Shown here piece by piece: positions 20,601-23,600 of a stretch of 64,000 nt of DNA; the first letter of the stretch is position 1, and the number at the start of each line of letters is the position of its first letter. A program made the position numbers and the translations under genes. Source of the DNA: Amoebidium appalachense (Eukaryota > Protista > Ichthyosporea); NCBI GenBank assembly GCA_963693365.1, contig CAVNZM010000004.1, positions 11,622,468-11,686,467 of the forward strand, in the 5' to 3' direction. The notes under the pieces are model-generated. The model saw only the letters and a list, made by a program, of their open reading frames with translations. It was not told the origin of the DNA and did no database searches.

Positions 20601-23600
20601 ACCTTTACTATCGTCTCCTCTTCCTCCTACCACCCTTCCTAGTTTGCTCCACGTCTTATCACCGGTTGCTTCACCTTCCTATTTGTTCTACTGTCGCCGT
20701 TTTATTCACTCAGAAAGACTGAGAGCAACAAGCTGAGATGGAAAACTTAAAGGTCTGTCCTGGTTTTTTACATCTGCTCATTGTTTTCTGGCCGTAGTAG
20801 ACAGGGGGAGGGGGGGGGGGGGGTTTTGAATGCGGAACACAGTACGAAGTACGCATACACGATGAGAAGCATGGTGCAGGACACATGCAAAGGCAAACAT
20901 TCAAGTATGCAGCATCAGCCATGCGCACAGTATGCGTCATAAGCAGAGCCCATCCTCAGGGAGGGCCCAAGTCATCAATTGCGTCTGAGTTTCGACCCCT
21001 TAGCCCGCGTATATACGACGCTCCAACTCAGACAGCAGCATCAACTGAACTTGGGTGGGTCAACCCGTCTTGATCAAAGACGAGCAGGGTTGCTTATGCA
21101 AGCAAGGTGAGCAAAACGGTGAAGATGTATGTGCAAACTAATGCAGTGCAGCGACAAACGCGTATGTGGGGGGGGGAGGGGGGAGGGAAAGGGGGGGGGG
21201 GGGGTTTGAATGCGTCAAAAAGTACGAAGTACACAAGAACAAACGGATAACACGATGCAGAATGCAAGCCATACATAAAGAGTATGCATAATAAGCAGAG
21301 CCCATCCTCAGGGGGGGCCCACGTCATCCACAGTACCCGAGTTTCGACCTATTCCCCTCGTTAACGAAACCCAACTCAGATACTGTTTCACTTGAACATG
21401 AGTAGGTCACCCGTCTTGATCAGAGACGAGCAGGGTTGCTTATGCAGGCAAGGGCAGTGGGAAAGGCCGGGGGTTAAAGTTGCAGCAGTAAGCAGAAGCA
21501 AGAAAAATATAGATAGGAACTCAGGAGACGGGGCTTCTAGGAAGCTCCCCCGTCGATACCTAAGTCGATACTTCCCTGGCTAACATACTACACCAGCTGA
21601 AAAGAATTAAGTCCCGAAGGCCGCAGAATTCGTAATCAGAGGGGAAAATATGAGATTTGACCCACGCCGCAGGGTAGTAACACGCTTACTAGGGCGGAAC
21701 TTTATCGTCTTCGAACGGAAAGCTATGCCCCCGGATGTCAGCCGGAAATATGGTATCACCCATTGCTTTGGGCTTGAAAAAAGCCAAACCGATAGTCCGA
21801 GTTATGTTACGCCGGCGGGTAACATGCCGCATGGGTTCCAAGGGAGCTGTCGCCAACAGAGCGGTGTGTGCATGCGTGCGCGTAACGCAATGTGTGAAGT
21901 GTGTCTATAGCTATGAAAGGGGGTATGCAGAAGTGGACAGATGAAGTGTGTGGAGAGAAAAACAGTAAGAAGAAAAGTAGACACCGGTATGTGCAACCCC
22001 GCACAACATACACACACACACACACACACACACACACATAAATAAGCGAAGATTACAGGTAATCAACCAGAACAACAAATGACAAGCAAAACAACAGGCG
22101 CCAAAAAAAAAGGAAAAAAAAAAAAAAAAAAAAAAAAAAAAAGGAGGAAAAAGAAAGAGAGAGAGAGAGAGAGAGAGAGAGAGAGAGAGAGAGAGAGAGA
22201 GAGAGAGAGAGAGAGAGAGAGAGAGAGAGAGAGAGAGAGAGAGAGAGAGAGAGAGAGAGAGAGAGAGAGAGAGAGAGAGGGAGGGAGAGAGAGAGAGAGA
22301 GAGAGAGAGAGAGAAGGGGGGGGGGGGGGGGGGGGGGGGGGGGGGGGGGGGGGGGGGAGGAGAGGGGGAGGGGGAGGGGGTCTTAGGGATGCTGCAGAAT
22401 CGTCAGATATTAGACAAATCGTACCAATACGATCATTCTCTCATATATGTGAGAAGATTGTGACTAACGATGTGCAGAGCTGGTTAAGACCTGTTGAGTG
22501 TGCAGAGAAAATGGGAGGGGAAGGAGGAGGGAAAGGGGGGGGGGGGGGGGGGGGGGGGGGGGGGAAGTAAGAGAGGGGAGGGAATGTTAGAGTGTCAGTA
22601 GTCTCAGGGGACCCTGCAGAGTCGTTAGATGTCAGACAAAAACGCACCAACGACCAAGTTCTCCGAGGGGAGAAATGCGTAAAACGTTCTGCAGAGTGGG
22701 TTAGAGACCTGCTGATGAGAAGAGTGTATACAGGGTTTGGCCAGGGGGGGGGGGGGGGGGGGAAGGGGGGGGAAAAGAAGGTAGGAGGGGAAGGGGGGGG
22801 GGGGGGGGGGGGGGGGGAGGAGAAGGGGAAAAAAAAAAAAAAAAAAAAAAAGGGGGGGGGGGGGGGGGGGGGGGGAGGGGGAAGGGAGGGGAGGGAGGGA
22901 GGGGAAAAAGAAAAAAAAAAAAAAAAAAAAAAAAAAAAAACCCTGTGGTGGACAGATCAGAGACGAGACCTCCATTTCAAAACTTACCAGGCAACCCAAA
23001 AAAAAACCTAGCCGGCTGAGAAAGAAGAACGGCGGGGGAATTGTTTGGGAAAAGGAGCGGGGGGAGAGAGAGAGGGGGGGGGAGGGGAAGGGGGGGGAGA
23101 GGGGGAGAGAGGGGGAGAGGGAGAGAGAGAGAGAGGGAGGGAGAGAACGAGAGAGAACGGGGGGGGGGGGGGGGGGGGGGGGGGGGGGGGGGGAAAGGGG
23201 GGGGGGGGGGGGGGGGGGGGGGACTACCTGACGAGGTGCTGTGCCAGGGTGGTGTAGTAGTTATTGATGACGTCACGGAACTCCTTGACCTGTGTATCCG
23301 GGAGAACTGTGGGGGGGGGGGGGGGGGGGGGGGGGGGGGGGGGGGGGGGGGGGGGGGGAGTAGTAAGAATGTGTTACAGGACACGAAGTAAAGATTCGCA
23401 CAAACAATATCATGCACTTTACAGAAACGAGCACACACAACTGAGTATGCATTGTCAGTAAAACCCATCCTCAAAGTGGGCCCAAGTCACCCATGGCACG
23501 CCTGGGGGGAGGGGGGGAGGGGGGGGGAGGGGGGGGGTCTAAGTGTTTTCCTTTAGGATCGACGAACACAAGCGTGCCATCCACCAAGAATGCTGTGTGT

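Follow-up and report, generated by a model that had tools for sequence, protein, structure and literature searches.

What kind of hammerhead ribozyme, if any, is carried by a short repeat in the genome of the ichthyosporean Amoebidium appalachense, and how could its parts come together? The repeat lies in a stretch of 64,000 nucleotides (positions 11,622,468 to 11,686,467 of contig CAVNZM010000004.1, assembly GCA_963693365.1), which we call the window and from whose first letter all positions are counted. A sequence-only reading of the window had pointed to four copies that keep three hammerhead strands in an order that no circular permutation gives, and had supposed that the family may be new. 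The copy under study occupies 20808..21168 on the minus strand (here the 20824 copy, after the start given to it in that reading); it is truncated at its 5' end and has a C run at the other. Directly upstream of it in tandem stands the 21205 copy (21165..21453, minus), with its own full motif, a predicted cut at 21373/21372 and a C run. Two copies belong to a second subfamily: one at 5933..6199 (minus), with a full motif and C runs of 34 and 39 on its flanks, and the 51173 copy at 51166..51438 (plus), within an intron of the adenylosuccinate lyase gene. Another intron of that gene holds a decayed copy at 48312..48560 (plus), in which the core is broken but the upstream stem II and the kink-turn pattern described below are retained.

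Core motifs, stems and clamp helices

The words GUU, C-GAAA and CUGA(G/U)GA were read directly from the sequence in the order claimed for them in all four copies. The hammerhead core is present there as CUGAnGA, GAAA and NUH, with the A15.1-U16.1 and G10.1-C11.1 pairs and with U as H17; all catalytic positions are preserved in 4/4 intact-core copies, across two subfamilies. In the 20824 copy (minus strand throughout), the stem III 3' arm, the GUU site (H17 = 21025) and the stem I 5' arm GGAG make up block S (21021..21033). A variable hairpin (21003..21020), which folds and whose sequence differs by subfamily, separates the stem I arm from block G (20983..20998), made up of the stem II 3' arm GGGUC, GAAA (C-GAAA from 20994) and the stem III 5' arm; the stem I 3' arm CUCC and the core CUGAGGA occupy 20953..20963 (C3 = 20959, A9 = 20953). 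The cut positions that had been predicted, 21025/21024 and 21373/21372, are located at GUU sites. Stems I, II and III flank the core. The proposed stem III is borne out, with 9 contiguous pairs in the 20824 copy, 13 in the 21205 copy and 11 in the 51173 copy; in the 5933 copy it has 10 pairs plus one mismatch. Stem I, just 3-4 bp long and invariant in the window, holds for the 20824, 21205 and 5933 copies (4, 3 and 3 pairs) and is lost from the 51173 copy through a 9-nt deletion relative to an expressed contig.

The motif is indeed a non-circularly permuted hammerhead: the order A-C-B of the sequence-only reading is S-G-C (cleavage site, GAAA, CUGAnGA) and departs from the circular block order of Rfam types I-III. 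This order has already been published as type SGC, validated in vitro and found in metatranscriptomes (Eckert et al. 2023, PMC10085705; this and the other published sources are cited for the parts of them covered here), so the order by itself is not new. The concern that standard Rfam models may miss the motif was justified: the best hammerhead match scored 14.2 bits (E 7.7) against a gathering score of 34, and no ribozyme reached the Rfam threshold among the 150 of 263 window matches that were listed, nor in a local scan.

Stem II is another matter. The sequence-only reading had formed it with the arm GGCUCU, downstream of the core. That arm is invariant: 22/24 cells pair, 0/6 pairs are double-changed, and 2/6 pairs are broken in the 21205 copy. 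A full helix listing revealed that the strand before GAAA has a second partner, upstream of the whole motif. This partner, GACCC (21057..21061), begins at G10.1 and lies upstream of the remaining ribozyme; the helix that it forms (21061-21057 with 20998-20994) pairs in 25/25 cells, with 2/5 pairs double-changed and three sequence states. Duplex energies in the first subfamily were -8.5 kcal for the upstream arm vs -5.6 for the downstream one in one copy, and -7.0 vs -2.3 in the other. The sequence after A9-U pairs with the 5' side of the element, first as CCC/GGG and then in an outer helix. The former, which we call P0, joins CCC at 21087..21089 to GGG at 20951-20949, right after A9-U; a single C>U change preserves a pair here, and a double-sided change was seen in none of the window copies. 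The outer clamp helix joins 21091..21098 to 20945-20938, with 3/7 pairs double-changed and all lettered cells pairing. The 3' strands of P0 and outer clamp together (20938..20951) include the stem II arm of the sequence-only reading. That downstream stem II is probably wrong; covariation makes it highly probable that stem II is formed with the upstream arm, and in that case the hammerhead core likely has an opening between A9 and G10.1 that two helices clamp.

With an upstream stem II the CUGAnGA block would be split, and what had been called a distal helix would become a contact helix between stems I and II, because it lies immediately after the stem II arm and ahead of the stem I arm, as in SGC ribozymes. 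This helix (5' strand 21046..21055, pairing with 20974-20966) is real, with 90% of cells pairing; the complete covariation ascribed to it did not survive scoring, 1/7 pairs being double- and 3/7 single-changed. Between it and stem III, 5/5 copies carry a kink-turn pattern (3-nt bulge, tandem GA/AG, then A.G or U.U), which arose in shuffles at a rate of 0.001-0.009 per copy. In the 20824 copy the bulge and GA lie at 21040..21045, opposite GA at 20976-20975, and the strand 20966..20977 holds both the kink-turn partner and the contact helix 3' strand; the flanking helix reads UCA/UGA or GCU/GGC, depending on the subfamily. The pattern fits the kink-turn consensus of a 3-nt bulge and then tandem G.A/A.G, set between two helices. 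The sequence-only reading had overlooked both clamp helices and the kink-turn pattern, as well as the nature of the carrier. Between P0 and the stem II arm, a further hairpin, P1 (21063..21085), was predicted by folding; 80-93% of its cells pair, it shows no double-sided changes, and its pair probability is 0.99 in the 20824 copy and 0.31 and 0.02 in two others. The 5' strand of P1 (21085-21075) can also pair with the core strand 20958-20948 (minus; 11 bp, -12.4 kcal), and over 7-8 bp in two other copies; this alternative is a possible off-switch.

We judge it very probable that the structure is under selection. In the whole model 93.7% of 175 cells pair and 7/40 pairs are double-changed (five related rows), with double-sided changes in the upstream stem II, stem III, the contact helix and the outer clamp. 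Covariation was scored on an automatic five-copy alignment with imperfect gaps, from whose related rows the structure had itself been derived. None of 500 shuffles matched the paired percentage of the model and 1/500 matched its pair count, while slid controls paired in 27-50% of cells. A full descriptor of this wiring, drawn from the window copies themselves, found 3 sites in the window and 0 in 200 block-wise dinucleotide shuffles (which held 3 partial sites). The 51173 copy fails it because of the 9-nt deletion, the 48312 copy because of core decay. The descriptor also matched 0/145 loci preselected for both core motifs by looser patterns, 25 of them viral and 120 from metagenomes; the metagenome loci, at least 120, came from 19/64 parts of the collection, for which we estimate about 430 overall. 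A strict motif pattern gave 0 matches in the metagenome collection.

The carrier repeat and its relatives

All four copies of the sequence-only reading are real, but they are part of a larger set. A profile of the five longest copies brings the number in the window to 13 at E<=0.12, 10/13 at E<1e-6, in two subfamilies that have only 86/181 alignment columns in common; 5/13 are near full length and the remaining copies lack the 5' part. A C run of at least 12 stands directly 3' of 11/13 copies, against a background of 0.067 for runs of at least 10 (66 C runs and 110 G runs of that length span 4151 bases of the window). Other copies extend 5' of the position equivalent to 21168, with different sequence there. 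The element is non-coding. The 20824 copy sits in a predicted intron (about 23228 to 20497, minus) whose flanking exons join in frame. Within the adenylosuccinate lyase introns 5/5 copies lie on the sense strand, as do 5 copies inside the minus-strand gene that surrounds the 20824 copy (read by eye); one element copy stops immediately before the 3' splice site at 45835. The interval of about 550 nt from a (TG)n tract to the 21205 copy (21454-22040, minus) is unique within the window. Contigs of two small runs reach into this side, so the 21205 copy may end a longer unit of about 830 nt; a coding remnant was not found in 21454-22040 (minus). Motif scan, Pfam and Atlas gave no reverse transcriptase or endonuclease remnant in 21460-22000, and 3 phmmer matches upstream cover short stretches, the 2 inspected being unrelated repeat proteins.

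Is the repeat transcribed? Runs X1 and X2 join adenylosuccinate lyase exons across GT..AG introns, and because of these spliced joints we take both to be RNA, none of the listed runs that contain the element being recorded as such. Their contigs cover 30/30 bins of 20815-21470, and the X2 contigs differ from the window by 0-2 letters. One contig of run X6, a run whose kind is not on record, joins the element 3' end to the 5' part via 101 other letters; such a joint would come from a tandem array or a circle with a unit length of about 453 nt. Variants at 21404/21350 were considered as a compensating pair and rejected; unphased, they agree in depth in X1 (1425, 1433.5) and not in X2 (4, 168.5).

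A microsatellite target, 5' truncation and head-to-tail tandems, all found in the Amoebidium element, are characteristic of the Naiad/Chlamys Penelope-like elements, for which (C)n, (CA)n or (TA)n targets, 5' truncation and tandem insertions are described; (C)n targets, truncation and tandems are given for Chlamys (Craig et al. 2021, PMC8557442). That paper describes Naiads as without canonical hammerheads and bearing only 'HHR_core' or 'HHR_half_core' flags, 8 of them with a core in two halves that lie 35-50 nt apart; the text covered lists Naiads only in animals and does not contain the string 'ichthyospor'. By eye, we recognized the same split-core wiring, in different sequences, in 9 Naiad entries of File S5 of that paper. 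It begins with the clamp and a hairpin, passes through a stem II arm with G as its first letter, the contact helix and stem III to NUH, continues with stem I, stem II, GAAA and stem III, and returns through contact helix, stem I and CUGAnGA to the clamp. The nine (Naiad_EuTe; the entries preceding Naiad_Mley, Naiad_Aacu, Naiad_Anas, Naiad-1_Movir, Naiad_Ovul and Naiad_Omin; and two unnamed) represent six sequence types, because three coral and two octopus entries are near identical. Exceptions to the wiring are a stem II mismatch in one coral entry, a stem I of only 2 bp in the ctenophore entry and an octopus clamp of 3-4 bp. In Naiad_EuTe stem II is GACGCC/GGCGUC and the clamp GGGG/CCCC, the reverse of the window clamp. 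No downstream stem II partner of at least 4 pairs was seen by eye in the nine. Seven further Naiad entries, from the section of File S5 on nematodes and horseshoe crabs, were read by eye as type CSG with an intact C block; Eckert et al. (PMC10085705) knew just two CSG sequences, from metagenomes.

The Amoebidium target is thus Chlamys-like and its ribozyme Naiad-like, in an element that is non-coding. Poly(C) ends, truncation, tandems and the common RNA design suggest that the mobilizer is probably a Naiad/Chlamys-type Penelope-like enzyme. Non-LTR retrozymes and minimal Penelope hammerheads are likewise short, non-autonomous tandem units from Penelope-like ends, also proposed to act as dimers, and have in common with the Amoebidium element an unpaired nucleotide 5' of stem II (PMC4209133; bioRxiv 10.64898/2026.07.22.740005). 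Their hammerheads are type I and dimerize via a short stem III, whereas the Amoebidium stem III is long and docking is predicted via stems I and II; the one type I hammerhead per tandem unit that marks a non-LTR retrozyme is lacking.

The nearest relatives in strand order are the type SGC ribozymes (HRIMA-1 and variants). Both they and the Amoebidium element have pseudoknotted stems I and II and a helix joining the outer arms of these stems, which under the upstream model would be the contact helix 21055-21046/20974-20966. In type SGC, however, the stem II arm comes no more than 1-2 nt after CUGAnGA, and Eckert et al. 2023 (PMC10085705) assume that the two are inseparable; in Amoebidium the arm would lie about 100 nt upstream, with P0 and P1 at A9/G10.1. 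The I-II linker is typically 3 nt in type SGC, as opposed to a hairpin of 20-25 nt plus the kink-turn pattern here, and the RNAs of Eckert et al. (PMC10085705) come from metatranscriptomes or metagenomes, save one bacterial GCS candidate, whereas the Amoebidium element is a chromosomal repeat. The element likely works like a hammerhead, yet without the intact block C of type SGC, as the covariation in favour of the upstream arm suggests. Type II phage hammerheads with A9-U-G10.1 (8/25 viral loci, by eye) use the same core words, CUGAUGA-U-G and GUC-GAAAC, but are circularly permuted, with an intact C block and the U-G arm directly after the core, where the Amoebidium arm is upstream. These type II hammerheads occur in phage contigs L004, L011, L012, L014, L015, L019, L020 and L022 (by eye), with two in L015. 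Perreault et al. 2011 describe, in the part covered, solely short core insertions. We came across no account of a hammerhead with an opening at A9/G10.1 in the literature searched, the coverage of which was incomplete, with supplements partly outside it.

Possible cleavage, by two units or by one

The sequence-only reading had warned that folding in cis is difficult, and a crude rigid-rod estimate from helix dimensions agrees: for one molecule it puts the long arm at about 67-70 A and the contact helix at about 28-31 A, a gap of 36-55 A that a linker of 6-13 A would have to span. Stems II and III were presumed to be stacked through the core. The kink-turn pattern would leave this problem unsolved. 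Because the gap in one molecule exceeds the linker, the choice is between a contact helix that opens and a head that docks on the foot of a different unit. We favour docking because the contact helix and kink are conserved, an analogous helix is required for cleavage in SGC-3 (PMC10085705), copies occur in tandem, and dimer-dependent hammerheads have been published for Penelope-like elements (PMC4209133).

The proposed mechanism is as follows: each unit would form a rod consisting of contact helix, kink-turn and stem III. The terminal loop of the rod, its head, would present the GUU site and GAA, plus one stem I arm and one stem II arm, and its base, or foot, the other arms of stems I and II together with CUGAnGA. 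P0 and P1 would occupy the place, between A9 and G10.1, of the single nucleotide that is bulged in other hammerheads. In a tandem transcript, the head of one unit would bind the foot of its neighbour and the RNA would be cut 3' of U17. This would free RNA of unit length to be reverse-transcribed at C runs; in host introns, solo copies would mostly remain uncut. That the predicted ribozyme cleaves in some state seems rather likely to us and, given cleavage, docking of two units is somewhat more probable than action as a monomer. The combined proposal, a self-cleaving hammerhead of a non-autonomous Naiad/Chlamys-type element, split at A9/G10.1 and cutting when two units dock, has in our estimation an even chance of being correct.

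Several observations besides the crudeness of the rod estimate count against our model. Duplex energies in the second subfamily hardly distinguish the upstream from the downstream arm (-6.4 vs -7.1 and -6.6 vs -6.5 kcal). Nested folding gives stems I and II zero probability, as expected of pseudoknots, and does not fold the 5933 copy into a rod. A U17 site with a stem I of 3-4 bp predicts a slow ribozyme, and the lengths in the entry Naiad_Bfor would permit a monomer. An X2 contig (record 11, 20983-21120) spans the predicted cut unchanged at a depth of 185, so uncut or re-joined RNA exists; the runs consist of assembled contigs, which do not show RNA ends. In the 13-copy profile set no truncated copy begins at the predicted cut, and the window yielded no autonomous element, no target-site duplication and no remnant of a reverse transcriptase. 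Reading of the Naiad folds was by eye, from motif-search displays, in which many matches were unrelated, and one file part rather than from a census of the 54 Naiads, and the split-core fold was not seen by eye among the Chlamys matches displayed.

The most serious alternative, though an unlikely one, is that the same split core cuts as a monomer after the contact helix and kink-turn open or bend, the rod being a resting, inhibited state. All of the pairing evidence fits such a monomer equally; an open contact helix leaves some 22-24 nt of single strand connecting the parts; and 0-nt links between distant helix ends in SGC ribozymes are an open structural question in Eckert et al. (PMC10085705). 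What tips the balance towards two docked units is the conservation of the contact helix and kink-turn in 5/5 copies, a stem III pair probability of 0.97-0.98 in two copies and the requirement in SGC-3 already mentioned.

It is less likely still that the motif is a non-catalytic scaffold, derived from a hammerhead and recognized by the retrotransposon enzyme or a kink-turn-binding protein, that no longer cuts in this host. The uncut RNA across the site, the weak U17 site with its short stem I and the sense copies in host introns would suit a scaffold, but two subfamilies this divergent keep the catalytic positions in 4/4 intact-core copies, and the Naiads have GUA, AUC or UUC sites with a stem I of up to 6 pairs. 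An ordinary type SGC hammerhead with an intact C block, its stem II formed by GGCUCU after a 2-nt insertion, appears quite improbable. Insertions of 1-2 nt next to the core are known (PMC10085705), nearly all cells of that helix pair and its duplex is equally stable in the two second-subfamily copies; against this stand its lack of double-sided changes, the pairs that break in the 21205 copy, the overlap of the arm with the covarying clamp helices and the want of any such partner in the 9 Naiads (by eye). A tRNA-derived short interspersed element (SINE), in which 21034-21023 and 20997-20987 would be the polymerase III A and B boxes that they resemble, is largely refuted and very improbable, since ARAGORN and Rfam detect no tRNA there, B-box T54 is G in every copy, and the boxes leave CUGAnGA, the stem pairings and the kink-turn pattern unexplained. 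A box C/D snoRNA was rejected, the C-like and D-like words being just 13 nt apart.

Neighbouring genes and significance

The adenylosuccinate lyase gene (44451-51800, plus) is seen in RNA as 7 exon pieces; the best match of its first exon is 89% identical and carries an Ichthyophonus-type gene prefix, and the next are at most 80%. Further repeats lie at 49180-49880 and 46760-46804, with divergent RNA contigs on these intronic stretches. Downstream, an exon at 53953-54120 (plus) encodes part of a TEA/ATTS (TEAD-like) transcription factor (Pfam E 2.9e-9). The multi-exon gene at about 9000-27000 (minus; MIF4G E 0.009) presumably resembles UPF2. An open reading frame at 39422-40252 (minus) is hydrophobic over an N-terminal stretch and matches a ricin-type lectin domain at a score under the Pfam cut-off, and a tRNA-Asn gene lies at 3954-4026 (minus).

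A hammerhead opened at A9/G10.1 would contradict the published assumption that the CUGAnGA block cannot be interrupted, and a split core would add permutations beyond the six considered possible. The insertion point and assembly-dependent cleavage, if real, may be useful for ribozyme switches. The likeness to Naiads offers a cheap and direct test of why a very large clade of Penelope-like elements seemed ribozyme-less. More tentatively, and with the chances rather against it, the split-core topology common to animal Naiads and a unicellular holozoan may predate animals and serve as a copy-number sensor that cuts only tandem transcripts or small rings of units. If so, thousands of solo intronic copies would stay harmless, and the 'missing' hammerheads of the Naiad/Chlamys clade would be explained. 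Our reading of the Amoebidium repeat would place the split-core design, and probably such elements too, in a unicellular relative of animals.

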